NCBI GenBank assembly: GCA_024137785.1
Contig: JAHRHZ010000023.1
Span: 35,651,085-35,715,084 of the forward strand
Length of the DNA: 64,000 bases
DNA from: Ginglymostoma cirratum
Lineage: Eukaryota
Direction of reading: 5' to 3'
Below are positions 15,126-59,668 of this stretch, piece by piece. Positions within the stretch are counted from its first letter, which is position 1; the number at the start of each line of letters is the position of its first letter. The translations under genes and the position numbers were made by a program. The notes beneath the pieces were generated by a model. The model was not told where the DNA came from, searched no databases, and saw only the letters and a program-made list of their open reading frames with translations.

Positions 15126-15963
15126 GAGAAGATTTGTAGCTTGAGTTGTGGATGGGGTTGTAGACTCGCTCGCCGAGCCGGTGTGTTTGGATGCAGACGT
15201 TTCGTCACCCTGCTCGGTAGTATCATCAGTGCGCCTCCGGTGAAGCGTTGGTGTTCTGTCCAGCTTGTTATTTATAAGCCTCGGTTGCTGGGGTGGTTGG
15301 CATCACTTCTGGTTCTATTTTTCAGTGGTTTGTATATCGGGTCCAGTTCAATGTGTTTTTTGACGGAGTTCCGGTTGGAATGCCACACCTCCAGGAATTC
15401 CCTGTCATGTTGTGTCGTTTGGGTTGTTGGCACAAACCAAAAACCACCCTGCGACAGCTACTGATGAACGTAAAGGATCCCATACCCACAACCAATAAAA
15501 CTAACGTAATATACAAAATACCATGTAAGGACTGTGAGAAACATTACATAGGCTAAACTGGAAGAAAACTGACCATAAGGATACACAAACACCAACTAGC
15601 CACCAAAAGACACAAACAATTTTCACTGGTCTCAATATACATGGACAGAGCAGGACACGAATTCGACTGGGACAACACATCCATAATAGCACAAGCCAAA
15701 CAAAGACATGCCAGGGAATTCCTGGAGGCCTGGTATTCCAATTGGAACTCCATCAACTAACACGTCAACAAACTCCATCAACAAACCACTGGAAAACAGA
15801 ACCAGACGTGATGCCATTCGCCCCAGCAAACCGAGGCATATAAATAACAAGCGGGACAGAACACCAACACTTCACTAGAGGCACAACGACAATGTTACCT
15901 AGCAGAGTGACAAAATGTCTGCAGTCAAACACACCGGCTTGGCGAGCAAGTCTGCACCATCAT
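15126..15963 (+). mobile_element. Penelope-like element (Poseidon-like), 5'-truncated, GIY-YIG remnant with inverted upstream tail copy
   Basis: + strand from ~15410 reads HKPKTTLRQLLMNVKDPIPTTNKTNVIYKIPCKDCEKHYIG*TGRKLTIRIHKH...HEFDWDNTSIIAQAKQRHAREFLEAWYS (stop at 15554-15556). 15126-15409 is a diverged inverted copy of the 3' end (~15705-15963). Confidence 0.9.
15193..15232 (-). ncRNA. Minimal type I hammerhead ribozyme motif (PLE-associated)
   Basis: Minus strand reads GCA-CUGAUGA-UACUACCGAGCAGGGUGAC-GAAAC-GUC-UGC. The core is intact, stem I is GCA/UGC, stem II is imperfect, and a palindromic ACGU replaces stem III. Confidence 0.7.
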
Positions 15964-16427
15964 ATGGGGGAGTAATTTAACATTCTACCATACAGGAACA
16001 GTCGCAAGCCTACCCTTTGGAAAGTTAAAGACAGGGGGTTGAAACCTCATGCAGGCTGTTGATTCCCAGGTTGTAAAGGGCTGTAACGTAGACTCCAATG
16101 AATCAAGATTCAGGATAAGCTAATTGCTGCATGGAAAATAATGTAATAACCAAGGCTACAAAACATGTTGTATGTGGTAGAATGAGGAAGAAAACAGTGT
16201 CACGAAGGATGAATCTTACCAAGTACAGGTAGCTGTAGGGCACGCTTTCAGTCAGCACTTGAGCAGCCTGACAAGGACCCAAATGGTTACTTGAATCAGT
16301 CAAGATCTCAAATGGAAAGCAAGCCTTTCATTTCTTGTGCTTTATTTTCATAGATCCATATTTCTCTGTTAGATATTTGACAAACTCAACCCCGCAGCTG
16401 TATCAGCATCGGTATCATTGAGGAGGA

Positions 16428-16532
16428 GGATGAAAAGAAGGAATGATCAGTGCTAACAGAACGTGAGTCAGGAGGATCAGGATGGAAGAGAAGGAATGAT
16501 CAGTGCCAACAGAACTGGAGACAGGAGGCTCA
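16428..16532 (+). repeat. Tandem duplication of a ~52-bp unit
   Basis: GGATGAAAAGAAGGAATGATCAGTGCTAACAGAACGTGAGTCAGGAGGATCA is followed by GGATGGAAGAGAAGGAATGATCAGTGCCAACAGAACTGGAGACAGGAGGCTCA. Confidence 0.8.
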
Positions 16533-16579
16533 GGAAGCTGCAGCTGTTGATGAGAGGAGCCAGAGTTTGTAAGCTGTGT

Positions 16580-17530
16580 ATTGAGAGATGGTGGCACAGA
16601 GGCATTACTACTCCCTGTGAATGAGTGACAGGCAGTGCTGAAAACATCTTCATGTGACTGGGGAAGCCATCACCTGTGTCTATTGCTGAGTGGCTTGGGA
16701 GAAAGTGCTACAGCTGTGGGGTTGAAGATCACAGGTGGACTGATCTTCACAACCATCAGTTCCTTTCAACCCTCAGCTGCAGACATGTGTCACCTTTCCC
16801 AATAGGCAGCCCTCAAGTGTATTTATGAGTTCACGGTGTTCTGCCCAGAAAAGCATTAGAGATGGTCCAATTCACCATGGAACCAGGGAGTTGAGGTGCT
16901 TGAGCCTTCAGGATTGCAGCTATTCCCAGGTTCCTTCAGGTACAACACTGTACGTTATGTTGTTCTCAGAGCCGAGTGGCATCATCTAGCTGGATTCCTG
17001 AGCAGGTGGGAATTTCTCTTTTCATCTCTCTCTCAATTTGCACTTCATTTGGAGCTCCAGGCAATAATTCCTGTAGTATTCACCTGCTTACTACAGGGCT
17101 GTCACAGAGAACTTACATTCTACACACTTCTCAGGTTGTGTGAATATTTGCCCCTTTCCTCCCTTACATCATCTCCACAGCTGGGTCTTAGGTGACAAGA
17201 GGAATGCCAGAAGATGTGGCTAATGACCCAAGTGCACAGCCTCAGACTGGTACCCAAGAGGACCACAGTGCTGAAAATAAAAATGCTTTACAGCTCTGAT
17301 GAAGAGTCATCTAGGCTCAAAACATTAGCTTGCTGTCTCTTCACAGAAGCTACATGATCCACTGTGATCTCCAGCTTTGTTTTCAGTGCAGATTTCAGCA
17401 TCTGCTGTAGTTTGCTCCTACCAGGACTACAGTGTCGCCCAGGTATCAATGAGGTCTGCCATGGAACAGAAAATTGGTCTTCTGCAAAGACACTTCCATT
17501 GTCTGGACCATTCAAGAAGAACACTCACCT
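16580..17530 (+). mobile_element. PIF/Harbinger (HARBI1-like) DDE transposase remnant, with stops/frameshifts and a PLE insertion
   Basis: Collinear pieces: MSDRQC, VGLKITGGLIFTTISSFQPSAADMCHLSQ*AALKCIYEFT, WVLGDK, WLMTQV, SMRSAMEQKIGLLQRHFHCLDHS. They match Harbinger motifs LKVTxALxFFASGSFQ..D..ISQ, WLLGDxGY..WLMTP and TRxxIExxIGLLKxRFRCLD. Confidence 0.8.
17271..17422 (+). mobile_element. PLE-type tail insertion with HHR-like core (family B-related) inside the Harbinger remnant
   Basis: AGCT-CTGATGA-AGAGTCATCTAGGCTC-AAAAC-ATT-AGCT (GAAAC decayed to AAAAC). TSD AGGACCACAGTG 17259-17270 / AGGACTACAGTG 17423-17434. Confidence 0.75.
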
Positions 17531-18299
17531 CCTCACTATGGACCTCACAGGAACTCAGTTCTTAGCACATTCTTTTCACTCAGCTATTTAACATGTATGT
17601 TTTGTGAGATCCTGAATGTGATCTTATTGTACTACATATAATCTCGGCAATTCTGTACCTGCATTTTCATTGTGCGCATTAGTTGTCTTCTCTTACAGTT
17701 TTCCAAGCTGCTCTTAAGCTTCAAAAAGAGTACTTTGAGTATGAGCTCATAAATTGGTCTGCAAACATGAGAACCACCAGTGACATAGTAATTGCATTCT
17801 GAGGTGTAGCTGTCATTGGCAAAAATGCAATGTTTGATATTGCTTCATCTATTTCCAATTGTGAATTAAATTTTTAACTGTGCAAAGAAGAAATTGAACA
17901 ACACCATTAGACTTGGACTAATGTGGAGAAATATTGCAATTCATCATCCACTCTCACACATATCCTGGAAAGCCTTACCAATAATTGCAGACCTTGTTCT
18001 GTAATGTTCTCTCTAGGAATGTTGAATAAACTTAAGCTAGGGTTAGAGTGTGTGCTACAGCGTGCTTAACATATTGACCAATTGATGAATGATGGGATAC
18101 TTGGTAATGTCTTCAACCATGATAATGTAATTACTTATATGGACTTGATAAAAGATGTGATTTTGAACCAAGGATTTCATGGGATATCAGTAATTCCTCA
18201 TGCTTGGGATATGCACCTGATATGTGCACGATATTTCTTGCAGTTCTTAGCAAAGATTTTGATGTCACTGCTTATTGGAGTCTAATATACCTACTCGAC

Positions 18300-18560
18300 T
18301 ATTCGGAGTCTTTTTGACTAATATATATCCATGTGTGAGTCATTAAGTTGTTGACAGCAAGTCATAGAGATTCAGGTATGATGACCTGCCCTCCTTCAAA
18401 AATGATTCCTCGGGAGATGACAAGCTCATCCCCAAAAGGCCAGTGTGGTGTCACATTTGTTGACATGCTGAATTGAATCAGACCATCCTTCATGGATGGC
18501 TTTCTGTAGTTTCTGTAGTGTTGAAGCTTTTGCTGTTTCCACTTGCAACTATTGACCTTC
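18300..18560 (-). mobile_element. Gypsy/Ty3 LTR-retrotransposon pol fragment (RNase H-integrase linker)
   Basis: PHWPFGDELVISRGIIFEGGQVIIPESL resembles the YWxxRDELSxxDGLxFKGxRVVIPxSLR motif that precedes the integrase zinc finger. Confidence 0.65.
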
Positions 18561-19243
18561 ATCCATTAATTTTGGCATCTTACCCATGCATGTACAGGCA
18601 TCGAGCTGAGAAGAATGTATTTGATGTGAAAATCTAAATCCTCACCCTCCTAGAACTCTCTTGTTTTTAGACCTGCCTCCACACTTAATTTAAAATAAAC
18701 ATTCCATCCATAGGCTCCATCATGACTCATTTAATCCCGAATATTACAATTTATGTTACTTACCTGCGATGTTCTGCTTTCCTTGATTTGACAATTCCAT
18801 GTTTTCCTCATCTTAAGAGAAAAACCTTTTATGGAGCAATATATATGCCCCATTTAAAGTATTTGATCATCGCTGGTTTTATTTAGCCTTGTAGCATTTA
18901 ATCTTTTCCAACTCTCAGCTCTCATTTAAAGGAAATTAATCAAAGAGTGGCAATAACTGATTTGGGTTTCAATTAACTCCACATACTGTAGAATAATCGA
19001 ATTGCTTCAAATGACAAATCCCCCTTCAAATTTTGTTAATTTTGCTCTTTTCCTCGAGCCTTCCATTGACAGTTCAAGCTAAATACTTAGTCACAATGAA
19101 TACTATCCAAACCTTAATAACAAGGTGTGGAGCTGGATGAACACAGCAGGCCAAGCAGCATCATAGGAGCAGGAAAGCTTGACGTTTCAGGCCTAGACCC
19201 TTCATCAGAAATGGGGGAGGGGAAGAGGGTTCTGAAATAAATA

Positions 19244-19820
19244 CATCCAACGAAATGCATCCAACGCATCATCCTCTGACATTTCCGCCATCTGCAATCC
19301 GACCCCACCACCAAAGACATTTTTCCCTCCCCACCCTTGTCTGCTTTTCGGAGGGACCACTCCCTCTGTGACTCCTTTGTCCGCTCCACACTCCCCTCCA
19401 GACCCACCACACCCAGCACTTTTCCCTGCAGGAAGTGCTACACCTGCCCCCACACCTCCTTCCTCACCCCAATCCCACGCCCCAAGAAGACTTTCCACAT
19501 CAAGCAGATGTTCACCTGCACATCTGCCAATGTGGTATACTGCATCCGCTGTACCCGTTGTGGCCTCCTCTACATCGGGGAAACCAAGCGGAGGCTTGGG
19601 GACCGCTTTGCAGAACACCTGCGCTCAGTTCGCAACAGACAACTGCACCTCCCAGTCGCGAACCATTTCAACTCCCCCTCCCATTCCTCAGACGACATGT
19701 CCATCCTGGGCCTCCTGCAATGCCACAGTGATGCCACCCAAAGGCTGCAGGAACAGCAAATCATATTCAGCCTGGGAACCCTGAGCCCAACGGTATCAAC
19801 GTGGATTTCACAAGCTTCAA
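19244..19820 (+). pseudogene. C-terminal linker plus GIY-YIG endonuclease of the PLE ORF (no RT domain; stop and frameshift)
   Basis: ORF track 19337-19963. In-frame TGA near 19277, and a frameshift after LGTL before PNGINVDF. Confidence 0.85.
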
Positions 19821-20147
19821 AATCTCCCCTCCCCCAACCGCATCCCAAAACCAGCCCAGCTCGTCCCTGCCTCCCTAACCTGTTCTTCCTCTCACCTATC
19901 CCCTCCTCCTACCTCAAGCCCCACACCCATCTCCTATCTACTAACCTCATCCCACCCCCTTGACCTGTCTGTCTTCCCTGGACTGACCCATTTCCTCCCT
20001 ACCCCCCCACCTACACTCACCTTTACTGGCTCCATCCCCGCCTCTTCGACTTGTCTGCCTCCTCTCCACCTATCCTCTCCTCTATCCATCTTCTATCCTC
20101 CTCCCCCTCTCTCCCTATTTATTTCAGAACCCTCTTCCCCTCCCCCA

Positions 20148-20181
20148 TTTCTGATGAAGGGTCTAGGCCTGAAACGTCAAG
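20148..20181 (+). ncRNA. Minimal hammerhead ribozyme motif (family A); mirror copy on minus strand at 19178-19211
   Basis: UUU-CUGAUGA(20151-20157)-A-GGGU CUAG GCCU-GAAAC(20171-20175)-GUC(20176-20178)-AAG. Confidence 0.7.
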
Positions 20182-21112
20182 CTTTCCTGCTCCTATGATG
20201 CTGCTTGGCCTGCTGTGTTCATCCAGCTCCACACCTTGTTATCTCAGATTCTCCAGCATCTGCAGTACCCATTATCTCTGACACTATCCAAACCTTGCAG
20301 CATTTTAGGATTCAGATAAAATCTTCGATTCTGTTTCGCTGACAATAATGTATTCAATTCTGTGAATCTCCTCTCACAATTTAAGCCCCTTATTTGCAGG
20401 ATCCTCCATGTTGTTTTTTCTCTGAATCCCTTTCCAAAACAATAGTCTCCCTTTAAAGACTGGTGATCCTATATTGTGCTTAATAGTAAGAAATACTTAG
20501 CATCATAAAGTAGTTTATCCCTTTCTCCATTGAAATACTGAGCTGAGATATATTTATATGGGGAGATGCGAGCTTGAAGCTCAATGCCACCTCAGATACA
20601 GAAAGGAGAATGGAAGGAAGGCTGCCATACATCTCTCCTGGCAGCCATTTTAACATATCAGAGAAAGACTTGGCACACTTAATAGAAAAGGTTAGTGATT
20701 GAAGTGTAATTAGCATGAAACAGAAAGCAGCAGCAAACTATTTAATGGTTAAATAGGTAAGTATTAACACTATTCATATTAAGTGAACCTTTGTGCCAAC
20801 AGAGTTTTCACCATGTAATCCACGAAGAATAATTCCTGAGGACAGTACAGCTGAAATCAAATGTTCCTTAAGATCAAAGTTGTTCAGATCTTCCTGCGTC
20901 CTAGTGAGATCAAGACTCAAACCCTGAAAAACAGCAGAAGATGTAAACACTTTGCCAAAGTACAGTAGGCTACACCAAACAGGAATCATTTCTTTCAGAA
21001 TCATGAAAATGTTGTGATAAAACAAATGGGATCAGGACAGGAAAATACCACGGTTCTCTCTTTCCCACTGGTCAACCCAACATAGCCAACAACTTGACAT
21101 ATCTCTACATGA

Positions 21113-21246
21113 GATAGTAGGAACTGCAGATGCTGGAGAATCTGAGATAACAAGGCGTAGAGCTGGATGAACACAGCAGGCCAAGCAGCATCAGAGGAGC
21201 AGGAAGGCTGACGTTTTGGGCCTAGACCCTCCTTCAGAAAAATGAA
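21113..21246 (-). mobile_element. PLE tail (family A) solo insertion
   Basis: Reverse complement of the 20150-20280 tail (CTGAAGG variant core). TSD CTCTACATGA at 21103-21112 and 21247-21256. Confidence 0.85.
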
Positions 21247-21599
21247 CTCTACATGAACTTGCTACCAAAACTGCTCTGTTAACTGGCAAATGTTTTAGCT
21301 GGTGCCTCCTAACAGTGAGTTTATAATTTGAGTTTGTGGGCTTATTGCTTCCATTTGCAGTTAAAATGTGATAGCCAGTCTGCCCTGGCCTGGGGTGAAT
21401 TTTGTCACTCAATCATGGGCTTTTCACCTCATTAATTATGCACCAAGCAGTTGGGTCCAACTAGCAGCAAGTCACGAGACAATTTAGGTGGAAGTACTCA
21501 CCATGCCAGAGTTTTCTGGCATTCATACTGTTGGTGCCATTTTTAAAGCCCAGCTGCACATCCATATCAGATGCTGCAAATCAGGAGTGTCTCGTTCCA

Positions 21600-23210: not shown

Positions 23211-23271
23211 CTCATAGCTCATTAGTCTGTGAAGAAAATCTGCACAAGCAGATGATGGAATATGCATTCAC

Positions 23272-23495
23272 TAAAAATCTGGAATTAAGAATCTAATGAT
23301 GACTGTGAATCCATTGATGATTGTTGGAAAAACCCATCTGGTTCACTAATGTCCTTTAGGGAAAGAAATTGCCATCCTTACCTGGTCTGGCTTACATGTG
23401 GCTACAAACCCATAGCAACGTGATTGACTCTTACTGCCCTCTGGGCAACAAATGCTGGCCAAGCAGCCACATCCTCATCCTGTGAATGATTTTTT
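23272..23495 (+). mobile_element. 5'-truncated tRNA-SINE (same family as 62928-63290)
   Basis: AAATCTGGAATTAAGAATCTAATGATGAC...AACCCATCTGGTTCACTAATGTCCTTTAGGGAAAG...CATCCTGTGAATGA. Confidence 0.8.
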
Positions 23496-26869: not shown

Positions 26870-27133
26870 GGCACTTTACTCACACCCTCTGACACTTTTA
26901 ATCCCCTGCGAAGACTTGTTATTCAACCTGTTGATACTCCACTCACAGTATTTGTACTTACCTTTTGACATCTTAATTATCTGGAATTATTTTGCCATTA
27001 TCTCTCAGCATATAAATTCTATACCTGTGCGCTTCTCTCCACTTCATTTGATGAAGACGCATGGCTCCAAAAGTTTATGATTTCAAATAAACCTGTTAGA
27101 TTATAGCTTGGTGTCGTGTGATTTCTGACTTTG
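26870..27133 (+). mobile_element. PLE-type 3' tail (family C) with decayed HHR
   Basis: TTGATGA(27048)-AGACGCATGGCTCC-AAAAG-TTT followed by TTTCAAATAAACCTGTTAGATTATAGCTTGGTGTCGTGTGATTTCTGACTTTGT. Confidence 0.6.
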
Positions 27134-29364: not shown

Positions 29365-29580
29365 TTCTGAAGTAAAAATAAAATTGCTGGAAGAATTCGG
29401 CAGATCTGGCAGCATTTGTGGAGAGAAAGTAAAGTTAATGTTTTGAGTCTACTGACTCCTCATCAGACCCAAACTTTTAACTCTGCTTTCTCTCCACAAA
29501 TGCTGCCAGACCTATTGAGTTCATCAGCAATTTTGGGTTTTGGTTCAGATTTCTAGCATCCACAGTTCTTTGATTTGTTA
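29365..29580. mobile_element. Fold-back (tail-to-tail) PLE mini-element, family B, older
   Basis: Left arm ...TCTGGCAGCATTTGTGGAGAGAAAG..AGTTAA and right arm TTAACTCTGCTTTCTCTCCACAAATGCTGCCAGA... are inverted around TCCTCATCAGACCC. Confidence 0.8.
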
Positions 29581-32013
29581 TAGCCTTGATGTATATACTT
29601 TATGACAACTCAACAGTATAAACAATTTATCCATTAATACAACAGAGGTTTCCCAGGCATTTGACAGCAATCACATATTTTCCTCAAACTAATGCACATA
29701 GGTCACTATCCAAATGATTTTTTGACCTGTTTAAAAAATAAGTTGTCTTCACAGAATATGCCAATATCTATCTGTCTCAAATCTGAAGTTCAAGGGCTAA
29801 AACATAATTATAAATACTATACACCATTCATCACATTGCAGAGAAAAGGATTCATTATATTTCAGATGGGAAGCTAGCAAGCAGAATTATTTGGTTATCT
29901 CATTCAACTTCATGGATGTTTTCCAGAAAGATTTACTAGACAAACCAAATATTTATTGTGTCAAAGTGCCACTGAAGAATTGATGCAAATAGAAAATGAT
30001 CCTAACATATCGAAAAAGCTGATAGGCCCTAAGCACGCACTCAACAGTTGACATAAGTAGAAGAACGCCCGAATATAACAACATATATAAAGGTATGACT
30101 TTCTGCAAGAAACAGAGAAATAAGTAGCTCTCAAACAATTTTGCAAGGCATGTGGCAGAAAAGGCCATTGATAGAGGCAATGTATTAGAACAAAGGCTGA
30201 TTAGGGACCACGCGTCATGCACTGATGCAAACATGCACATACAAGGAAAATTTCAAACCACAATAAAGACTGTCTGGTATCCTGCAAAAGGCATGTACGT
30301 CAAATGATTGACAAACCAGAGTCTGATGTTGTATGCGACAAGATAAAGCATGATGATCATATGTTTCACACTGTTTATCTCATGGGAAGTATCAGTTTTA
30401 TTTATTACTAAATAACACATTGCAGAATGTGTTTATAAAAATACAAACTAACTTTCCTCAAAAAAATTGTGACTGTTTGTTATTGGCTAAGATGGATATA
30501 AGACAAAGATCATTATACTCTCCATGTGATTTTTTAAAACATGTACATACAGACCTGGTAAGCTATGATGAAACTTACGAATGTAAAATTTTCAGCAAAT
30601 AATGATTCACTAAATCCAAGAACAGGATCAATAGTCTAAGCACAATCAATCTGATTAGATTTTGCAGATGTTCTACAACGTAGATAATGCTGGACCAATT
30701 GCACGTATGCCAGTATGCAGTGACTTCATACAAGACATAGAATTAGTCAAACATCAGATACATAACAGAACTATTCTGGAAACACTTTCAGGACTGAATA
30801 TGAGCATTTGTTATTAGTGAAGCTAAAATCTCAGTTCTCTGCTTTAGAAGGAAAGTTGAAAGTTCAAGATAAAATGTTTGAACAGGGCTGAGGGTAAACT
30901 TGAGAACACCATCTCTGAGACTCTGAAGGTATATCTCCACTCAGCTCACAGAGTGAACTATAAGCTCTGAATCATCGGTTCAATGAAAAGATTACTAATT
31001 CACTGAAAATTGTGGCGTAATTCACATTTAAAACAGATCAGGCTCAGGAGGAACAGCTATGGATACATCCGCTTAAGTTTGAAGCAATGCAGTCAGAAAG
31101 ACAGACCTGAAAAAACAGATGGAGATGCATAGTGCACAAAAGAATGAGCTGTGAAGTGCTTATGAGACAGTCTTTCAAAAATTAGTGCTGCAAATGATGC
31201 TCTAGTGAAGGAAAATACAGAAGGAGTACATAAAAGGAAACCAAACAACAACTGAAGCAACATGTGGAAGATGCCAGATCTCCAAAGAAAGGCTGGACAA
31301 TTATTAGTGCAGGTCATAAAAGAGAAAATATACTGGATCAACAGAACACTAAAAATTTGATGGCATTACAAAAAAACAGCATCTGAATATCAGAAGTTTC
31401 AAAACGATCTGCCAGCTCTTGAGGTACAAAACATTAAATACTAAGAAGATTTGAACCACTCAAAATAGGAATGAGAAACGTCAAAAGCTAATCAGGAGTA
31501 AAACTTAACTGTCGTGTAGGAGGATACACAAATTCTGGGACAATAAATACAACCTGTTAAAGAAAAGTTTGACAATACCAATAGAAATGACGGAGAAAAT
31601 CACTAATGATGATTACATTCAGCAACACCTCCAGACAAAATCACCACCATGTGATCTGGATTTATCAGGAAATGCCTACATATTAAAGAGATTCATAGAC
31701 TTGTGTTACAGCAAATAGTTAAACTTTCTCTGGGAAAGAAGTGAGATTTTGTATGTTTACCTTGCCTCTCAGAGAAACCTACTTTAAGGACTCTGAGTGT
31801 TGTGCATATGCAAGTTTGTGACTCTGCCTGACTGTTGGGTTGTTTTAGGTTTGGAAATAGCACACCAAGAAATTAACTGAATTGTGGCAATGCCTTGTTT
31901 ATGACTTGTAATGTGTTTTACTGTTTTCAATTAACTAACCCTTGGAAGTAATCAATCCCTAATGAGCAACTGATTATGTGACCATCATCATAAACTTGAC
32001 AAAATCTTTCTCA

Positions 32014-32635
32014 GACATATTAGGAACTGCAGATGCTGGAGAATCTGAGGTAACAAGGTGTAGAGCTGGATGCACACAGCAGGCCGAGCAGCATCAGAGG
32101 AGCAGGAAAGCTGACGTTTCGGGCCTAGACCCTNNNNNNNNNNNNNNNNNNNNNNNNNNNNNNNNNNNNNNNNNNNNNNNNNNNNNNNNNNNNNNNNNNN
32201 NNNNNNNNNNNNNNNNNNNNNNNNNNNNNNNNNNNNNNNNNNNNNNNNNNNNNNNNNNNNNNNNNNNNNNNNNNNNNNNNNNNNNNNNNNNNNNNNNNNN
32301 NNNNNNNNNNNNNNNNNNNNNNNNNNNNNNNNNNNNNNNNNNNNNNNNNNNNNNNNNNNNNNNNNNNNNNNNNNNNNNNNNNNNNNNNNNNNNNNNNNNN
32401 NNNNNNNNNNNNNNNNNNNNNNNNNNNNNNNNNNNNNNNNNNNNNNNNNNNNNNNNNNNNNNNNNNNNNNNNNNNNNNNNNNNNNNNNNNNNNNNNNNNN
32501 NNNNNNNNNNNNNNNNNNNNNNNNNNNNNNNNNGAATCATTTCTGAAGAAGGGTCTAGGCCCGAAACGTCAGCTTTCCTGCTCCTCTGATGCTGCTTGGC
32601 CTGCCGTGTGCATCCAGCTCTACACCTTGTTATCT
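32014..32635. mobile_element. Fold-back PLE element, family A, centre lost in assembly gap
   Basis: Inverted family A arms on both sides of the N-run. Right arm carries CTGAAGA-A-GGGTCTAGGCCC-GAAAC-GTC. TSD CAAAATCTTTCTCA at 32000-32013 and 32636-32649. Confidence 0.85.
32134..32533. other. Assembly gap (400 N)
   Basis: Run of N. Confidence 1.
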
Positions 32636-32984
32636 CAAAATCTTTCTCACACAGCTTCTCAGTTGATGTTCTTAAAGTGTCAAGCAAGACCTTGCAAGCT
32701 CAAGGAGCTCCTCTTGAGACTCAAAGATATGCTGGTCATTTTGTTTAAAAAAAGATTGCTTCTATTTTTGCTTATTTTTTGTTTTTGATACCTGTAGATC
32801 CAATTTCCAAGGAATCCTGGCAGTTTGTTTGAAGGAATGTACTCGTACATTGTACCAGCACACGGAGTCTGTTAAACCAACACCTAAATGACCCTATTAG
32901 GCACCAGAAATATTTTTCTTCAAATAGACAAAAAATTGGAATTTCCTATGATTTTGAAGAAAAAATAATGGAAAAAGAATGTGC

Positions 32985-34190: not shown

Positions 34191-35224
34191 AATAACACCA
34201 CACCAAGTTAGCTGTTACCCTACCTACCTCACCTACCTGCCACCAAGCCTCCTGACCTATCTGCTTCCCTAATCCGTCACCCACTTGCCTGGAAAGGTAA
34301 CCCTTCAGCCATTTATCTGGCAGCATACCCTGCATCCACCTAAATCTATCCTTCTTTCACCCATCTACCTGGCTCTTTAGCATCGACCCAGAGAGTAGGA
34401 TACATCGGGGGCAAACAACTGGAGCCGGGGGCTCTAGGGGACTCCTGTGTTTGTATTAGGAGTAGAGTTACTGTACTTGGGTTGAGGTTGGGACCATTGT
34501 GCTTGGGGCCCCTCATTAGGGGCCTAACGAGGAGCAGTACTGGGGTCCATATCTGTCCCTAGTCCTGCTGTCTTCCATCTTGAATGGAACCCCACCCCCT
34601 TACCAGTCAGTCACCCAACCTCTCAAAAATCCAGTTGCCACCCAACCCCTTAACTTACTTGTGAATCAACCATCCCCTTACCTGGTACCATATCCCTCTG
34701 CCACCCTATCTCTTTGGCACTTATCTCCACACATGATCCCCAAACACACTTATCTTTGCACCATAGCTTCTCAAAGAGGTTTTGGTCTTCAAACCCTGGA
34801 ACGTGTTTGCTGCTGCTGTTAGGAGGGGACATTGTTTGACCCCTGCCGTTGGTTCCACATAATGCCAGATGGTTTCTGATCAGGATTGTTCTCAAAAGGC
34901 CTGAACTGTAAGTACAGGCCCAAAATATTAAACTACAGGGCAAGGATAGAAAGAAAGGAATGAAACGGTAATCTAACTGTGATTACCACTCCCTGGGAGA
35001 CTGGGCCCAATACCTTTTAAACATGATCAGAATGGGACTCTTACAGTCAGACAACTGTCTCCAATGTTTTACAAATGCCCCTGCCACCCACCCCTAGCCC
35101 CCCATGTCCCAATAACCCTCACAGCCCACAATGTCCTACTCCGAGGCCCACTGCACACTGTAACCCGACATCCACTCCCCAGCTCCTTCCCACTCTGGCT
35201 GACAGCCAGCTTTTCAATCCAAAT

Positions 35225-35447
35225 AATAACCGAAAGAACTGCAGATGCTGAAAATCAGAAACAAAAACAGAAGTTGCTGGAAAAGCTCAGCAGATCCCGC
35301 AGCATCTGTGAAGAGAAATGAGAATTGACGTTTTGGGTCCAATGACTCTTCCTCAGAACAGTTCTGTGGACCCAAAACATTAATGCTGATTTCTCTTCAC
35401 AGATGCTGCCAGAGCAGCTGAGCTTTTCCAGCAAGTTCTGTTTTTGT
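35225..35447. mobile_element. Fold-back PLE mini-element, family B
   Basis: Inverted arms around CTCTTCCTCAGAACAGTTCTG. TSD AGCTTTTCAATCCAAAT 35208-35224 / AGCTTTTCACTCCAAAT 35448-35464. Confidence 0.85.
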
Positions 35448-35782
35448 AGCTTTTCACTCCAAATGGTTTTTGGACAGGGAACCCCCTGAAAACACCAAAA
35501 AAATCTTGCTGGTAATCTCAGAAGGACTTGGAGAAAACTCTTATTTCAAGGTTTTCAGTCAGAAAACACTCTGCTTCATCTCATGCCTCAGTGCCTTTAC
35601 CTTCAGACTCAATTATTTCAGACTGCTCCTGGTTAGGTCCCTATCCTCTACCTTCTATAATCCTGATACTACTGTTTATATTCAATCTTGCTTCATTGCC
35701 TGGAAAACCTCCATCTTATTCTTCACCTTTAAGGCCCTGCTAAGAACTCTTCGATTAGGCTTTCCATTCCCTTTTCTTTAGC

Positions 35783-36108
35783 CATTCATGGGACGTAGAT
35801 ATTGCTGCATTGGCCAGCAATTGTTGCCAACCCTATTGTCCAGAGGCTGTCACATTACTGCAGGCCTGGGGTCACATGTAGGCCAGACCAGGTAAGCACG
35901 ACAGATTTCCTTCCTTAAACGGGCAACTCGATGGGCTTTTACAAAAATCAACATCAATTACGCAGTTACCTCTAGGCAAACACTTCATTCTTGATTCTCC
36001 ATTTTAGATTAAAATTTCACCTGTTCGATTTCATGTTCCCAAAGACATTGGCCTAGGGGGTTCTGGAATACTAGCTGAGCAACATTGCCACGACTGACTG
36101 CCTCCGCT
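35783..36108 (-). mobile_element. tRNA-SINE (62928 family), decayed
   Basis: CATTCATGGGA...GTCACATGTAGGCCAGACCAGGTAAG..AGATTTCCTTCCTTAAA is the reverse complement of the family body. Confidence 0.7.
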
Positions 36109-40540: not shown

Positions 40541-40739
40541 ATCAGAGATAATAGGAACTGCAGATGCTGGAGAATCCGAGATAACAAGGTGTAGAGCTGG
40601 ATGAACACAGCAGGCCAAGCAGCATCATAGGAGCAGGAAGGCTGACGTTTCGGGCCTAGGGTGTCAGCCCAAAATGTCAGCCTTCCTGCTCTTATGATGC
40701 TGCTTGGCCTGCTGTGTTCATCCAGCTCTACACCTTGTT
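40541..40739. mobile_element. Fold-back PLE mini-element, family A; both arms truncated inside the HHR
   Basis: Inverted arms meet at GGGCCTAGGGTGTCAGCCC. TSD AACATGAAAATCTT at 40527-40540 and 40740-40753. Confidence 0.9.
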
Positions 40740-40904
40740 AACATGAAAATCTTGTTTTGTTCTTCTCCACTTCACAATAAATGATTTAGTAGTGTGAACT
40801 ATTCACTCAGTGAGAACATTTGATCTGGGGTAATTTGATGGGATGTCACATGGTTCATGGCCTTTTTGGCAGGTTGACTGATAGGTTACACCTTCTCGGA
40901 GGTG

Positions 40905-41316
40905 TAGAATCATAGAATCCCTCCAGTGTGGAAACAGGCCCTTCAGCCCAACAAGTTCACACTGACCCTCGCAGCATCCCACCCAGACCCATCCCCCCAA
41001 TCTACACATCCCCGAACACTATGGCCTATTTAGCATGACCAATCCACCTAGCCTGCACATCTTTGGACTGTGGGAGGAAACCTACGCAGATACAGGGAGA
41101 ATGTGCAAACTCCACACAGCCTGAGGCTGGAATTGAACCTGGCTCTCTAGTGCTGTGAGGCTGCAGTGCTAACCACTGTGTTACCGTGCTGCCCACAAAG
41201 GAAACTCACACAGGCACAACATGCAGACTCCAGAAAGTCACCCCAGGCTGGAATTGAACCCAGATCCTTGGTACTGTGAGACAGCTGTGCTAACCACTGT
41301 GCCACCATGTCACCCC
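40905..41316 (-). mobile_element. HE1-like V-SINE (40905-41195) plus an adjacent second 5' head fragment (~41198-41316)
   Basis: TAGAATCATAGAATCCC tail, GGGAGAATGTGCAAACTCCACACA V-domain, and two GGAATTGAACC...GTGCTAACCACTGTG tRNA-like heads. Confidence 0.85.
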
Positions 41317-44230: not shown

Positions 44231-44500
44231 TAAAATAAAGCAACATACCTAAATATTAATGAAATATAATGGATGAATGAAAAGCATAAGAAAACACAAG
44301 AATGAAAAATTTACAAAGTTTAAAACAAAACGTTAAAAAAGGAATAGCATTATAACTTATGCAGGTCTTCATGTGATGATCAATGAACGAGAAACTATTC
44401 ATCCTGGGTGGCTGCAGGACATGTATTTTAACCAACATGATTCATGACTAAATTGTCTAGTTTGGTATGGAATAGACAAAATCAACAGATACAGACAATA

Positions 44501-44634
44501 AAAGCCAAAAGAACAGTGGATGCTGTAAATCAGAAACAAAAACAGAAATTGATGTAAAAACTCAGAGGTCTGGCAGCATCTGTGGAGACAAATCAGAGTT
44601 AACGTTACATGTCCAGTGACCCTTCCTCAGAAGT
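44501..44634 (-). mobile_element. PLE tail (family B)
   Basis: Minus strand CTGAGGAAGGGTCACTGGACATGTAACGTTAACTCTG... flanked by AGACAATA at 44493-44500 and 44635-44642. Confidence 0.8.
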
Positions 44635-44665
44635 AGACAATACCAGAATATGCCCTCTTAAACTT

Positions 44666-44798
44666 AATAAAAATCTAAAGAACGAAAAGAACTTCCTCAA
44701 TTCCGAAGAAGGGTCACTGGACCCGAAACATTAACTCTGATTTCTCTCCGCAGATGCTGCCAGGTCTGCTGAGATTTTCCAGCAATTTCTGTTTTTGC
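44666..44798 (+). mobile_element. PLE tail (family B) with short inverted terminal stub
   Basis: CCGAAGA-A-GGGTCACTGGACCC-GAAAC-ATT. TSD TGCCCTCTTAAACTT 44651-44665 / TGCCTTCTTAAACTT 44799-44813. Confidence 0.8.
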
Positions 44799-48903: not shown

Positions 48904-49023
48904 AAGACAGTAAGAACTGCAGATGCTGGAGTCAGAGACAGTGTGGAGCTGGAGGAACACAGCAGGTCAGGCAGCATCAGAAGAACAGGAAAGTTGATGT
49001 TTCGGTTCGGGACCCTTCTTCAA
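48904..49023 (-). mobile_element. PLE tail (family A variant)
   Basis: Minus strand TTGAAGAAGGGTCCCGAACCGAAACATC...TGCTGTGTTCCTCCAGCTCCACAC...CTCCAGCATCTGCAG. Confidence 0.8.
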
Positions 49024-49924
49024 GGTGCAATGAGGTTCAAGTTATCAAATTAGAACTCGGAATTTTGTGATTTCAGCAGTTCTGCCTAGAGTGCAGCATT
49101 TCATTCTTTGTAACCTCATTTAACATTCAGTTAAAAGCTCCTATGGCATTTTAAATTTTTATAGAAATCCAGTAGAATACAAATATGCTAAAACAAACCA
49201 ATATCCAAATAAAGCTATTTATTTTAAATGATCACACTACTGCATCAATATGGACAGCATTATTGATGCTCCCATTCTTTACTGCTCACTAGTCAGGTTT
49301 TCTAAAGCTCCAGTTATAATTTTGTATCCTTATTCTGCAGGGGATTGTTTCGATTTGAGGATTTTTACTGTAACTGCATTTGTGTGATAAGGGATTTTTA
49401 ACACTCGGGCATCTTCTGCTACATAACTTCATTTTGCATGTACTTACCAGATTTCATTTCTGGGTCAAAAAGAAGGCAGATTGATTGGGGAGAGCGTTCG
49501 AAAAAATGCTTCCTTCCTCAGATTGGTGACCTGTGGCAACATTGAAAGGGACAATCTCTGTGTCACAGTGTCCTGAGCTGTAGTGAATCCTATTAATGTT
49601 CCATGCTGCAGAAAATCCAGGACACATGTGCAAACCTGTGCAGTATTGCTCAAAGTCTAGTCTTTCATTTTATCACTTTGAAAAATATGTACTGCGCATG
49701 CTTAAGCATGAAGATTAAATCTCAACAAGTCTATTTTAATATTTTATCTCTTTGCGAGTCCAAACAGACCGTGTTGGATTTGGTTAGCTGCCTTGTCACT
49801 GTAGGTGTTTGCTCCTCACTCAAATAAAAGCAGCTTAAGAATTTTACACTAAAAATCCATTGGCTTAGAAATTGGATCATGTTGTTCTTGTTTCTCTTGT
49901 GCAAAACAGGTGCCATAGGATATA

Positions 49925-50076
49925 AACCCTTCATCAGAAAATGTTTTTCTGATGAAGGGTCTAGGCCCGAAACGTCAAGCTTCCCTGCTCCTATGATGCT
50001 GCTTGACCTGCTGTGTTCATCCAGCCCCACGCCTTGTTATCTCAGATTCTCCAGCATCTGCAGTACCTTTTAGCTC
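49925..50076 (+). mobile_element. PLE mini-element (family A) with intact HHR core and 16-bp inverted stub
   Basis: ACCCTTCATCAGAAAA (49926-49941) is inverted against 49945-49960. CTGATGA 49949-49955, GAAAC 49969-49973, GTC 49974-49976. TSD TGCCATAGGATATA at 49911-49924 and 50077-50090. Confidence 0.9.
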
Positions 50077-53000
50077 TGCCATAGGATATAGTAGGTGGAT
50101 CGCAAGTATGAACCCATTCCTTGCTGTAACTTTGCTACACAAGGATAGGGTGTAGACATCCAGTGACAGGCAAAGATGTTTAGTTAACGTCTACTATTTA
50201 TGCTATTTGTAGGTCTTTTCTCCAAAATCATTCTTCCAAGGATTTTGCTGGATGTGCCATTATCTTACCCAGTTAATCCAGGAAAGCTAGCTAAAGGGTT
50301 CATTCTCTCCATACCAGTTCTTGGTTGATTTTTGCTGTTATACTCCGGTTAAGTGACAGAAATTTTTATTGTTCAATGAATTTTGATTTCCAGGAATAGC
50401 AATGTGATTGTGCATGATTGCTTTGGTCCACTTTGCAAACAGTTTATTCCAGTTACAGCTAGCTTGCTAGACTGATCCTTGGGGTTGGGAAACAAGAGCA
50501 ATCTATGAAGCAGGCAATAGAGAGGAGGAGAAGCTGGGGAGAGACCGAGGAGACACTGTACCAAGAGCTGCTCACTTTAGACCATAGGACACAGCTGAAC
50601 ACATCCTATTTTGGTCAGCAGTAGGCCAAAAGAACATTAAAGAGTTTTGCCTTTAAAATTAATCAGGTCTCCATGAAAGTCTGTGGTGGGAATTTAGATG
50701 ATTATCACGACCTTCAATCAAGAAGTTAAAATCCACCCTTTAGAATCCATAGTTCAGGGTAAAATTTCTGAGCACTTTGACAGATTCATCGACAACCAGC
50801 TATACAGATTGTGTGAGACCTCAAGAAATTACCTGCTTTATATTTTTTTTAATGCATTATTTATTCAGCATTCTGTGTATAATATGTCATTGGTTGCAAA
50901 CACACCTTCTGTTAGTGTTTTTTGCGAAAAGTCAATCCACCCCTTAGGGACTAGTCTCCTCAGGGAAAGGAAATACTTTGCTCTGGATTGGTCATGTTAT
51001 TCTTCTATTTTACCACTTCAACATACATGCAGTGTCCCCTGTTTTGTATTTTGTTTTAAACTAACATGATACATGATACATCAGAAACCCTTCCCAACCT
51101 GCATTCTCTGGGTTCAGTGCAAAATATTAGTTAAAGGCAAGTTGTATTTCACATCGTTAATACTAAGTTTGAGAACAAGAACTTGAAGATTGCATAAATT
51201 GTAATAAAATTGTGTATGGTTCCATAAACTACTTCATCTTTCAGAAATTGTTAATTGTAAAAATCCACCTTTATGTTATGAAGAAGTGAGGAATTATGCG
51301 TCAAAGCTTTATTAATGTACATTTGAGGGTGAATGGGTATTACTAGAACTGGAGAAGCAGTGGGCTCACTCCTAAATTTGATCCTGATGATTTGTACTTA
51401 GGTATAGGGAACACACTGTCAAAACTTGGGGAAAACATTAATTTACGAGCTTCCAAAATATTTAAGAGGACAGGGAAAGAATTCAGGATTATAGATACAA
51501 TTTAATGGAATGAACAAGAGAGTTGGCAACTGCAATTAAATGTGAATAAATTTGAATCTTTGCTGAAAAGAGACGTTTTTCTGAAGCCCTCTCTCTTGCA
51601 CTCACCAGGACAAATGCAAAAATGCTAAGTTTCAAATGATCACCATTTATATTATAGAAGAAAAGGCTGCTCATTAGTTGGTAATTTGACTCTAATTGAC
51701 TGAGACATTGCCATGAATAAACCAACAGAGATCTAAGTCTCCTCAAACTCCCAGCTAATTCAAAAAAGGTGCAATGCTGAATATATTCTATTTGATTGTA
51801 GAGAACTGGTCCCTCTGTATGGATATATGCCGCATCTGTGTAAATGAGCCATGTTCTGACTCAACCGATCATCTTAAATTAGTTGTAAGTGAAGCTATTA
51901 GCTACTCACAGTTGTTCAGCAAGTGCTATCTAATTGTGGAATCACATCTGACAGCTAATGGTTTGGTTCTGATTCTGCAAGCACAGGGTCATTGAGTACT
52001 GTCTGTAATACGAACAATAGAAGAACCATGCCAGTGTATTTGATCAACAAATCATTGGAAAGCATGGTCTATGTACCTACCATTGCACTTGCCCTGAAAT
52101 TCATAAACAATGTTACTCAATAGTGTAGTAGGCAAAATGCCATTTTGGATTTTTGGCAGCTTTGTGTTACTGGGAAATATCACTGATTTAGGTACTATGT
52201 TGCAGTGGTGCAAAGCAAGTTGCTTAGCATGTTGTTCAAATTTTTGAGATACTTTGTTTTTTCAGCATAATTCGACGAAGGGTGGACAATTTTCTGGCCC
52301 AGAACTGGTGTCATTTGGCCCATTTGTGAGTTTGTATGGTATACAGTGCATAGTGGTCTGATCAGGCTAGCCATTTCCCCACAGAATGGCTTTGACATAT
52401 GTCACATCTCTAAGATGAGCAAATAGTTAAGGCCCTATTTAAAAATTGCTAGTAAGGCCAATTTTATAGAACATAGGAAGTAGGTTTATAACAGACTCCT
52501 GACATAGAGCAGCCCAAAACGTTCCCTTTTCTTGATATGTTTAGTTGTGAAATCTGCAAATGGGTTCTCTACTGACCCCTGCTCCAAAGTTAAAAAGTCT
52601 AAGAATGAGTATTTTTCACCATCTTAGAAAAATATTGAACAGGTGTTGAAACTAAAGGATAAAGACAGTGTCAACTCCACACTGGAACCTGCTTTTCGAT
52701 AAAATGAATGAAATCCCCGTTTTTGCTGTCCTTTTGTAATCTTAAGCAAAGAATATCATTGCAACATTTGTAAAATTTTGTAAATCATTGGTAAACTATG
52801 TCCCTTGTCACTTTACATTTCAGTGAATGAATAAATGGTAACATTCTGTGCGCTGCAGTCTTAAGAACTAAAATGACATTTAGGAAAAACATCCTAGATG
52901 ACATTCTTCTAGGTGGAGATCTCGAGGCAGGAGGTGAAGTTAATTAGGTAAGTTGGTGCCGTAGCAGAATTCCATCCCATTCCCAATCTTTCTTCAATTA

Positions 53001-56000: not shown

Positions 56001-57499
56001 AGTCTCTCATCAGCTACTTCTATGAGTGATTATATTTTGCTTTTTCAGAGAGACTATCTAAAGATAACAAGCTAATTTCAATGTGCATTTCAAATCTAAT
56101 TTCTTGATATTTCATTCCCTCTGTGGTTAATGACTAAGATAGATCAAAAGAGATAGGAAAATGCTCATGACTTTTCATAATTTTATCAGTGAGAGCAGCA
56201 CTACAATTGCAGAAAGTTTGTCAGATTAGCTTTCTGAATTGGCAGATGAGAGCACTGAAAAACTGTAATTTATTTTCTTGGTTTCTTTAAATTTGAGAAA
56301 AGAGTACGACCAGTTGCCTTATTGAGTGAATATTCAATTCAGAATGACAGATGTCTGAGTCACCAATGGCATTGATGAATTTTTAAACATTGGTCAAACA
56401 CAAAGCTACTTAAATATGAAGAAAAAATCCAGGAAATACAGTTATTGACTAATGTACAGTGTAAAGAGAAACATGCATACAGGATTGGAATCTAATAACA
56501 GTCACAACTTGAACTCAGATGTACAATTGAGTGGGCTAAGAATGTGGCAAATATTTCAAATCTTGGCATGTGATTTAGCCTGAACAGGACAGGCATCAGT
56601 AACTGCTGTAGTTTTCGAGTGACACTGGGGACAAAGAACATTAAGGATCCAAACAAACCCAATGATTTTTTTTATTACACAAGTGTGTATACATGGAACT
56701 CAGTTCCAAAAAAGACTTGCATCTCCAACTTTAGTTGTTTCACATATTGAAACATTCTTACAACCTTGTGGGGTACTCAACCTTCCTAATTATCAAATTA
56801 CTGCAAATGTTGCACATTGCACAAGGATCATGCCTCCTTACATTTTGAAACAGTTCTCCACTCTATCTCTTCACTGTTTTTTTTTATAATGTTCAAAGCA
56901 TTTTTGCCCTATATGTGTCAAAGATCGCAACAATCATTTTTCTAATAACATCAAACATTTTCCTGCTTTACACATATCATTTTGGTCCGGTCTTCATTTC
57001 TCAATTTAAGTCGGCCTCAGTTTGAGTTAGGTATATCTCAACACCTTTTGGTGCCTGCGAACGTGGAGTACCTTTCTATTTGGCTGGCTATTAACTTCTA
57101 TTTCTGTATTTTTTCTAGCAGTAACACAATGACGGTCAAAAGGAAGATACATCTGAGGCCAAAGGAATGATTCCATGGTGTCATAATGATTCCATTATTT
57201 CTGAGCTGCATAGTTTAAAAGAACCCCACTAGTTTCTTGTGGGTTATTTCCCCATTGTTCTGACACCTGGTTAAAGTACAAATGTATGGAATGAGAGAAG
57301 ACATAAGCAGATTAGTTCTGGTGTGGATGATTTGTCAATGTAACACTGGCCAGCAACTAGCTGTTGTAGAGATCATGTCCTTTGATTTTGTGCTTTTTAA
57401 AACTGTGCATTGAAGTAATAAAGAGCTTGTTTTATAACCAATGATTTAAAATATTGCTGCATCTTTTGAAAAACAAATCACCTGACGCTTACGGCACGC

Positions 57500-58295
57500 A
57501 TTGTTGAAATAATTGCTTGAACAAGTTATAATTGAAGTTGCTAATCACCTGGAGCAGAAGGGTTCTGTGCACAGATGTAGCTGGGTAACAACAGGAAGTT
57601 AATTGGTCGATGGACTAGTGACCGGTTACTGATGATACCTTTAGCCTGCCAATAACGATGTCACTCATTCTTAGGTTTGGGGCTGGGGACAAGATAGAGA
57701 AGTATTTTGATCTCCATCTGGACAGAAGTTGTCTCTCTGTTCTGCGCAGCAAAACCCATTTTAAACCCAGAGAAAATCAGCTCATTGTTTTTTTCAGTGG
57801 TGTTGTGAGTGGTGACTTTGATAAGTCAAAGACCTTTTATAAGTGAATCAGCTACCTTGTGTCTCTTGCAAACCAGTGGAAGCACTTGGAAAAGGCCACT
57901 TGCTGACCAGTATAAGACCCTAAGACTCATTGTAGCTATCTGTGAATAGGAACCATTGATCTGTCTTCCAGATTTCCAACATTCATAATCTCTTAGTATG
58001 TATATGTGCATGTTTGCATGTGTATAGGGAGTTTATAGTGGGATTAGAGTTTTAGTTTGTTGTGTTATTTGCTGACAGTTTATAACTGCTTATCTGTAAC
58101 AGGAGTCTAATTACTTGTAATAAATAGTAATTCTTGTTATGTACAGAAACTTGGTCTATGCTTTCTATAAGCCTGGGTCTGAAAATCAGGTAAATTGGGA
58201 ACTTTGTGTACTTGTTTTCAAATCTTTTAACTTTTGAAATGACTGTGGGAATGGAGGGGTTTGATTTCCAATGTGCTGCCCAGTGAGGTGTGACT
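57500..58295 (+). mobile_element. Possible solo LTR (3' part recognisable)
   Basis: AATAAA at ~58119 followed by a U5-like segment ending ...CCCAGTGAGGTGTGAC. The 5' boundary is uncertain. Confidence 0.35.
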
Positions 58296-58361
58296 TTATG
58301 ATAGAAGTGCTTAAAAGAAGAATTGCTTGCTTGATCCAAAACATGCGATATCATAAGTTGA

Positions 58362-58643
58362 GAGATAGCAGGAACTGCAGACGCTGGGGAATCCGAGATA
58401 GCAAGGTGTGGAGCTGGATGAACACAGCAGGCCAAGCAGCATCATAGGAGCAGGAAAGCTTGCGGTTTGGGCCTAAACCCTTCATCAGAAAATCACCGGA
58501 CCCGAAACGTTAACTCTGTTTTCTCCTCCACAGATGCTGCCAGACCTTTCTGAAGAAGGGTCTAAGCCTGAAACGTCAGCCTTCCTGCTGCTATGCTGCT
58601 GCTTGGCCTGCTGTGTTCATCCAGCCTCACACCTTGCTATCTC
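58362..58643. mobile_element. Fold-back PLE mini-element, family A arms enclosing a family B fragment
   Basis: Inverted family A arms. Loop 58493-58547 TCACCGGACCCGAAACGTTAACTCTGTTTTCTCCTCCACAGATGCTGCCAGACC is family B. TSD ATATCATAAGTTGA 58348-58361 / ATATTATAAGTTGA 58644-58657. Confidence 0.9.
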
Positions 58644-58714
58644 ATATTATAAGTTGATACCTCTTCACATTCTGCCAATGGAATTTACCATCTCCTACTG
58701 CTTTTGAGTGACAA

Positions 58715-58835
58715 GACAGTCAAAGATTATGAGGGGCAGACTGGAAATGCAGCACAACCAGATCAGCTATGATCTTGATGAATGAAAGCTAGCTTGATGG
58801 ACCGAATGGCCTACCCCTGCTCCAATTTGTTATGA
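58715..58835 (+). mobile_element. CR1 3' tail
   Basis: GATCAGCTATGATCTTGATGAATG...GATGGACCGAATGGCCTACCCCTGCTCC..TTATG. Confidence 0.65.
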
Positions 58836-59540
58836 AGTTATAAAGACCAAGGTCTTGAGATGGACAAGACATGATTTTATTCTTGGTAGTTGTGAAACCA
58901 GGTGATTAAGAGAACTTATTCTCTTATACACTTATGTCCCATTTTACCTTCATCCCATTCTTATTGTCTTCATATTCATGTTATATTTATGTACATGATT
59001 ATCATCCCCATGAATAACATTGAACAGCACAACACATAGTTTCCAATTCTGCTGATGTAACTGACTTTATTTTATAGACAAACCCATCCTTACACTGCAA
59101 AATTATGTTGAGAAGAAATTTTTGTTGGCGGCCCCGAATAATTCCCTATCTTAAAGAATGTTATTTATTACAAAGTTGACCTCCCTGTCACCTTGTTTTG
59201 ATTTATACCATCTTCAAGGATTTGTTGCACTCTTGGGTTTTGTCAAGAAGTTTGTTTTAATGAACGTTCTAATGAGTTAACGCAACACTGGAGCGGAGTT
59301 TGGCATGTCAAACTTCGATAATTAGATTGCACTGGTCAGTTTGAAATCAGCAGAAATGAATATATAATTCTCTAAAAGAATTCTGCATCTTGCATTGAAA
59401 TAAAAATGGTGCTTGGGGAATTTAAAACTCATATGTAAAAGCAATTGCTGTCATAACTGGCATTTCCTCACAGATCAGACTTGCAGTCAAGTTATCACGA
59501 AATGGATAGGACAGGGTTTCCCAGATATTTAAAAAAGACT

Positions 59541-59668
59541 TTCTGAAAAAGGGTCCCAACCCGAAACGTCAGCTTTCCTTCTTTTCTGATGCTGCCTGGC
59601 CTGCTGCGTTCCTCCAGCTCCACACTGTTATCTCAGACTCCAGCATCGGTAGTTTGTACTATCTCTAA
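59541..59668 (+). mobile_element. PLE tail (family A variant)
   Basis: CTGAAAA-A-GGGTCCCAACCC-GAAAC-GTC-AGCTTTCC...CTCCAGCATC (core G8 mutated). Confidence 0.8.

Follow-up and report, generated by a model that had tools for sequence, protein, structure and literature searches.

The window analysed here, that is, the whole stretch of 64,000 nt (G000:C23:35651085-35715084 of the 4.36 Gb genome of Ginglymostoma cirratum), carries a series of short, coding-free inverted pairs built from the 3' region of Penelope-like elements (PLEs), together with solo copies and longer, endonuclease-encoding relatives. The layout was obtained from self-BLAST plus reading of the sequence; positions within copies are numbered relative to the core of a hammerhead motif (core -4, core +28, etc.), head-to-head pairs are given without strand, and published papers are cited for portions of their content. 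Six such units had been proposed in an initial annotation, and all six are inverted pairs where it placed them, with self-BLAST E values of 1e-6 to 1e-57 for five and a sixth, at 32014, that spans a gap of 400 N. As also annotated, one arm of each reaches the true 3' terminus and carries the tail, and the other ends ~35-40 nt sooner. Their treatment as a single group did not hold: each is an inverted pair of a PLE tail, but they split into family A (32014, 40541, 49925 and 58362) and family B (29365 and 35225).

The family A units have their tail in common with the element at 19116, one of two annotated GIY-YIG-bearing parents and the one borne out, by a match to GIY-YIG (PF01541) of 25.3 bits, above the Pfam cut-off. 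It is flanked by an exact 14-bp target-site duplication (TSD; 19102..19115, plus strand, right copy at 20283-20296) and consists of an inverted tail-less arm (19117..19243, minus strand, core -35..+91), which matches the right arm at 100% identity, and a 5'-truncated PLE of apparent Neptune type (19259..20283, plus strand) with a Cys linker, the GIY-YIG domain (19280-19963), the 3' region, the hammerhead and the tail. Within it, an initiator-like YYANWYY (20145..20151, plus strand) has its A at 20147, i.e. core -4, which is the genome-wide stop point of short arms and the putative start of a capped RNA; the minimal hammerhead (20151..20178, plus strand) reads CUGAUGA, an extra A, a 4-bp helix II, GAAA, a palindromic ACGU and GUC, with the cut predicted after 20178; and the one-sided tail of ~38 nt (20245..20283, plus strand) lies between two modes of 3' ends, at 20243-46 and 20278-82. 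The other annotated parent, at 15126..15960, is a third, separate PLE family (C) and not the parent of the six units: it matches itself only in self-BLAST, its tail is common to none of the six, its inverted arms are 80% identical, it has a hammerhead core of its own (15229-15199, minus strand), and its broken GIY-YIG, a motif read by eye, contains a stop codon and gave no hit in a Pfam search of the element.

On either side of 19116, 32014, 35225, 40541, 49925 and 58362 stand direct repeats of 14-18 bp that differ at one position at most, and no TSD was recognised in the window flanks checked at 29365, 44498 or 15126. In family A, the pair at 32011..32643 (subfamily A2) crosses the gap, with TSD copies at 32000 and 32636; that at 40542..40740 (also A2) has a tailed left arm and an exact 14-bp TSD; the unit at 49923..50081 joins a full tail arm from core -3 to an inverted stub of ~17 nt, again within an exact 14-bp TSD; and the insertion at 58361..58648 is tripartite, made up of an A3-type tail arm with G-ATTTT before it, a 55-nt family B fragment and an A2-type tail-less arm, inside a 14-bp TSD with 1 mismatch. 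Family B is represented by an old pair at 29366..29581, by one at 35223..35447 with a 17-bp TSD (1 mismatch) and by a pair absent from the initial annotation, at 44498..44797, with a 68-bp spacer; its parent is absent from the window, long copies with the B tail and a GIY-YIG motif read by eye being present elsewhere. Where about ten solo tails had been counted, self-BLAST and the sequence give 6: in family A, an arm of run-off length (21111..21242, minus strand, core -3..+127, 10-bp direct repeat) and two old ones (48905..49022, minus strand; 59540..59666, plus strand, beginning at core -3); in family B, 8281..8381 (plus strand), 6904-6951 and 17295-17359.

The assignment to PLEs rests on longer copies as well as on 19116. 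Elsewhere in the genome, a single, broken frame of family A copies holds reverse transcriptase (RT) motifs (AMGTRMGP and RYIDD), a Cys-rich linker and GIY-YIG; the RVT_1 match is weak (E 0.012, below the cut-off) and a PDB search with the RT piece gave no match. The linker preceding GIY-YIG in family A is CNRRKCYTC, and a Cys-rich linker between RT and endonuclease marks Neptune-like elements (PMC3846280). Judged by these motifs, family A can be classed as a Neptune-type endonuclease-containing (EN+) PLE, and family B is taken to be of the same type. Family A also has the PLE layout, namely a partial tandem pseudo-long terminal repeat (pLTR), an inverted copy and a 30-40 bp tail; in a partial tandem on C206, with a unit of ~3.6 kb, the tail runs on into the start of the open reading frame (ORF). 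A DNA transposon of the miniature inverted-repeat (MITE) type with terminal inverted repeats was rejected in view of the asymmetric ends, the continuous lengths, the 14-17 bp TSDs and the continuity with RT and GIY-YIG ORFs, so that the annotated reading of the units as PLE-derived retro-insertions is upheld.

The ribozyme is a more qualified matter. The sequence at 20151-20178 agrees with the minimal type I hammerhead of PMC4209133, with its CUGAnGA/GAAA/UH core, a helix II and one palindromic half of helix III. Helix II is 100% paired in 24 distinct rows, partly selected for intact cores, with one-sided changes only; helix I, for which 4-5 bp would be expected, has 4 bp in B and 2-3 bp in A and is paired in 83% of cells, with covariation no higher than in shuffles; and an Rfam scan returned no hammerhead hits, only miRNA-like hairpin scores below threshold. 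The annotated ribozyme motif is present, but most short arms are without an intact one, found in 13/51 short A arms and 11/58 short B arms, as against 26/50 long A arms. Release of the core costs 11.5-18.8 kcal/mol in the four hairpins where it can be read, versus 3.1 in a solo arm. A pile-up of ends at the predicted cut was suggested by the sample, where 7 ends (~4 unambiguous) fall at +28/+29, and dropped when genome-wide counts gave no excess of 5' ends there (230 at +28 vs 643 at +33, a control that covers more subfamilies, so that a small excess could remain). The absence of a peak is in keeping with the report that an anole element is copied mainly from uncut RNA (PMC11167929).

Beyond the window, 120 stretches of 10 kb were sampled, amounting to 1.01 Mb after exclusion of N. 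The sample is non-random, since 16 of the first 20 stretches, which were picked blind, were all N and the remaining 100 were chosen beside search hits or the window; its density is ~70 head-to-head pairs per Mb, and the genome total is uncertain. The sampled stretches, 30 other loci and the window together yielded 399 arm hits and 99 head-to-head pairs, of which 3 (one window duplicate, two artefacts) were discarded and 96 analysed. Arm 3' ends show the two modes named above, tailed and tail-less, and exactly one tail is found in 72 pairs, two in 5, none in 2, with 17 ambiguous. A TSD score of at least 10 was reached by 52/96 pairs and by 38/49 young A pairs, compared with 0/100 mismatched pairings used as controls. 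Arm lengths are continuous from <100 bp to ~3 kb, near full length; in the 10-kb stretches both arms are short in 54/72 pairs and at least one is long in 18/72. In one pair, L091:9425-9701, a family B tail arm stands head-to-head with a family A tail arm, both from the boundary discussed below; its TSD was not found.

Junctions speak to whether such units multiply as such. The initial annotation had offered, as one of two readings, a self-propagating, ribozyme-bearing hairpin RNA family, recognisable by junctions shared among loci. Comparison of the 88 gap-free pairs gave 86 junction types; the two seen twice, both in family B, might be taken for such a family, but each repeat differs in sequence type or tail polarity. 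The same can be said of the palindromic joint TCAGAAATTTCTGA, with both arms ending at -3, which recurs in 14/20 loci picked for GAA before A and, by rough extrapolation, at a few hundred loci genome-wide: it carries A1-, A2- and A3-type signatures, and recurrence across subfamilies is what is expected if both arms stop independently at one boundary. Furthermore, an amplifying ribozyme hairpin is unlikely because core release is costly and short arms keep an intact core less often than long A arms do. Thus, the hairpin family, already largely refuted, is the least probable of the alternatives considered here, and the units are one-off insertion scars. A non-LTR retrozyme, which requires head-to-tail tandems and at least two intact ribozymes per strand, was also discarded, the six units being head-to-head. 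The same palindromic joint is found on both sides of the gap in L195 and L200, two of the loci that, like L043, L129, L133 and the window (32134-32533), have gaps of 400 N at hairpin centres; such gaps are thus likely assembly artefacts and the true units shorter.

The other annotated reading, extreme truncation at a fold-back or second-strand priming step, fared unevenly. Were a single cDNA to fold back and copy its own start into the second arm, the arms would be expected to resemble each other, and they do: their lengths correlate (rho 0.40, which counts against full independence), they have subfamily and private variants in common, and those of 19116 are identical. However, in 28 of the 65 one-tail pairs compared for nesting, the tail-less arm extends beyond the 5' end of the tail arm by 10 nt or more; each arm then holds sequence absent from the other and, the arms not being nested, neither can be a copy of the other. 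In addition, subfamily-discordant arms lie inside an exact 14-bp TSD in L081, and the A3, B and A2 pieces of 58362 are joined inside one TSD. Self-priming by fold-back is accordingly held to be very improbable, only marginally less so than the hairpin family; a second-strand or two-ended priming step is supported. As for truncation, junctions are indeed nearly all unique, but the arms are not plainly random truncations, their 5' ends piling up at a fixed boundary.

Indeed, 34 of the 76 family A arms at risk stop at core -8..0 (hazard 0.050/nt), as against 1 of 42 at -20..-9 (0.002/nt). In family B, core-bearing arms are short in 58 cases and long in 13, the B hazard table being biased because its reference is short. 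The A at which arms stop, 4 nt before the hammerhead core, belongs in families A and B alike to a YYANWYY motif, the initiator consensus, and in family B it is the first base of helix I. A splice acceptor (CAG/TT) as the source of the B boundary was rejected, the bases before the G being diverse and family A being without AG there; in D. virilis, an intron ends at helix I (PMC4209133). Alternatively, the T run that precedes the hammerhead, sharing microhomology with AT-rich targets, may be where RT preferentially stops or cDNA ends are joined. Many boundary arms do carry 1-3 extra T's and a T or G common to the TSD or the partner arm, and the hazard is already climbing in +1..+10; yet a longer T-rich stretch ~30 nt upstream is without an end peak in family A, the sequences upstream of the boundary differ between A and B while its position is the same, and microhomology to a templated C does not predict the excess of G described next. 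We regard such a hot spot as improbable.

The base preceding A(-4) in family A was counted genome-wide by exact matches, with two non-C bases required before it, and was G in 1416 cases, T in 358, A in 1761 and the templated C in 3021; in family B, G:T is 660:343, about 38 of the first 100 rows of the T class resembling mutated long copies. Fisher odds ratios against an internal position (+43) are 6.6 for A and 3.2 for B. One base further out, G precedes C(-5) in 1176/3021 cases (39% vs 27% by composition); the boundary falls at core -4/-5. The flanks of 40 fetched G loci are all different. An untemplated 5' G has been read as a copied cap for L1 (PMC9341517), and here too the extra G likely marks the capped start of the element RNA. 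Four runs of assembled contigs contain the family and both 3' end modes; contigs cannot show RNA starts.

Which RNA this would be is suggested by insertions that combine several pieces. Within a single TSD, L211 holds an inverted tail-less arm, a G, sequence from -4 through the tail into 323 nt of the ORF start, and a second stub. Because boundary-starting pieces run into the ORF start (L211, L212, L103), the RNA starting at -4 would be the element's own message. At 10 distinct loci the end of an ORF-start fragment is followed by family A sequence, joined at core -4 to -8 in 8 and further upstream in 2; 6 of those 8 had been selected for boundary patterns, and the 2 unselected ones also join at -4 to -8. 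These joints are most simply read as RT running off one RNA and then switching to a second. L211 and L217, independent insertions, have a stub joined at the same ORF position (+323), possibly a preferred jump site. In L174 (G000:C4:14731034-14731659) the spacer has a short unit repeated 2-3 times at the cDNA end, which together with the extra T's of boundary arms suggests telomerase-like stuttering.

The same two-ended integration might by now be served by a different RNA, the 135-nt monomer having become a short interspersed element (SINE)-like non-autonomous transcript, produced from stubs in which the initiator is retained, with the PLE protein copying it in trans. In its favour, boundary stubs abound in subfamily A2 while long copies there are few, most of family B is short, the Penelope of D. 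virilis has an internal promoter with an initiator (PMC2377424), and internal RT initiation would shed read-through flanks (PMC11167929). Every called subfamily, however, also has long copies, the pieces that run into the ORF start indicate that some templates at least are element mRNA, and loss of long inverted pairs with age could yield the same skew. This course of events is considered unlikely, though somewhat less so than a stop or joining hot spot.

The reading preferred here, and judged probable, is that the units are one-off insertions of two Neptune-type PLEs in which both strands of a staggered cut prime RT, which runs off the presumed capped 5' end of the RNA. The GIY-YIG endonuclease would cut both strands ~14-16 nt apart, and each 3'-OH would prime at one of two internal RT start sites, the tail end or the tail-less site, as the anole element does in vitro. 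The RNA would start at the initiator A just before the hammerhead and, beginning there, would carry the same start signal near its 5' end, so that priming on this 5' copy would give cDNAs of ~97 or 135 nt. RT may then add a G by copying the cap, may stutter along the U run or may switch to a different RNA, and blunt or microhomology repair would join the two cDNA ends. The ribozyme would be a passenger that the template carries in uncut form and that any hairpin transcript would bury. The fuller version, that PLE RNA is capped and has its start exactly at the 5' strand of helix I, that a dimeric RT-GIY-YIG protein primes both strands of one cut on the terminal signals of uncut RNA, and that the strong-stop-like cDNA either inserts as a stub or moves to a second RNA, is put forward tentatively, at somewhat less than even chances.

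Several observations weigh against this two-ended scheme or against parts of it. Tandem copies reach far upstream of -4, so some RNAs or jumps start earlier; YYANWYY occurs 5-6 times per 300 nt upstream; and many arms end within +1..+60, short of the boundary. As for the extra G, the T count of the internal control (G:T 47:78) is inflated by internal deletions, the ratio being ~36:44 once these are removed by eye; the commonest non-templated-looking base before A(-4) is in fact A, a class that, from inspection by eye and 20 fetched loci, seems to consist largely of palindromic joints and runs of A; and the G is, by eye, clearly untemplated in only ~8/40 loci, coinciding in ~15/40 with a base of the partner arm, stub or TSD, with the rest unresolved. 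Boundary stubs and long arms stand at 23:9 in A2 and 2:22 in A1 in the 10-kb sample, which could be explained by age-related loss of long inverted pairs or by a non-autonomous phase. Finally, 55 of 59 classifiable pairs share their subfamily (29% expected at random), and private variants are common to both arms at 0.77% per site vs 0.18% in same-subfamily shuffles, a degree of sharing as compatible with a single template, or with subsequent conversion, as with two RNAs; probably, a single RNA or source element often serves both nicks, or the arms underwent conversion afterwards.

If the fuller version is true, tandem and inverted pLTRs would arise by LTR-like strand transfer, and the tens to hundreds of thousands of stubs in the genome would be a fossil cap analysis of gene expression (CAGE) map of the cycle of PLEs, the closest retroelement relatives of telomerase RT. 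The trace is specific and testable: the start at core -4/-5, the cap copied as G, products of ~97/135 nt, one tail per insertion, the 14-16 nt stagger and the uncut ribozyme are single-base predictions that the published in vitro PLE system could test directly. On the practical side, such hairpins can be taken for MITEs or for precursors of miRNAs, and assemblies break in the middle of them.

Other features of the window are an abundant ~310-bp repeat, SINE-like by eye and with many copies in the sample (8520-8836 and 40898-41305), another dispersed, unclassified repeat with at least 4 copies of 70-80% identity (23247-23489, 35772-35953 and 62223-63285), and an ORF (4715-5101, minus strand) matching Pfam ALKBH8_N (E 2e-8), which is probably a C-terminal remnant of the RT of a long interspersed element. 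No tRNA genes were found in the window.

Among the closest known systems is the EN+ PLE insertion unit, its inverted 5'-truncated copy and one-sided 30-40 bp tail being already published (PMC8557442, PMC3846280); head-to-head copy, TSD, partial tandems and solo pLTRs are alike as well. The coding-free minimal form, however, dominates here (54/72 pairs in 1.01 Mb), TSDs are of 14-17 bp rather than the 8-10 bp of Adineta, and the piling of 5' ends at a fixed point is not described in the portions of those papers considered. The architecture is already known, while no paper describing the fixed boundary, the extra G, or run-off jumps such as the ORF-start/stub joints for PLEs was found in the openly readable literature, which excludes subscription papers, Repbase, Dfam and supplements (Fig. 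S2 of PMC11167929 and the supplements of PMC4209133 may bear on 5' ends). The origin of the tandem and inverted ends of PLEs and the role of the hammerhead are stated as open in the parts seen of PMC8557442 and PMC11167929.

In vitro, the Anolis Poseidon element PAc cuts and extends both strands, with RT starting at two tail boundaries and uncut RNA as the main template, and later steps are left open (PMC11167929, in part). Its two RT start sites bound the tail like the two 3' end modes found here, but it belongs to the Poseidon clade and its ORF starts inside the hammerhead, whereas the present elements are of apparent Neptune type with an ORF starting ~40 nt past the tail. Minimal hammerheads of metazoan PLEs have been reported as thousands of singles and as opposite-strand pairs 100-700 bp apart (PMC4209133); core, extra base before G10.1 and palindromic 15.2-16.2 are alike, while helix I is weak in family A and the pairs were, in the part seen, loosely ascribed to truncated PLEs without end mapping. 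Non-LTR retrozymes (bioRxiv 10.64898/2026.07.22.740005, in part) are also PLE-derived, non-coding and of the type I hammerhead kind, but are arranged as head-to-tail tandems in which the same strand has two intact ribozymes. The units here are head-to-head, with at most one ribozyme per strand. In L1 twin priming, second-strand priming yields an inversion and the primed segments are successive parts of the RNA; in LTR elements, strong-stop DNA is a short run-off cDNA from the terminal repeat at the RNA 5' end. With L1 the present insertions share the inversion and the untemplated G read as a cap mark (PMC9341517, in part), but both of their arms start at the same terminal signal; and, unlike strong-stop DNA, the run-off product would itself be integrated.

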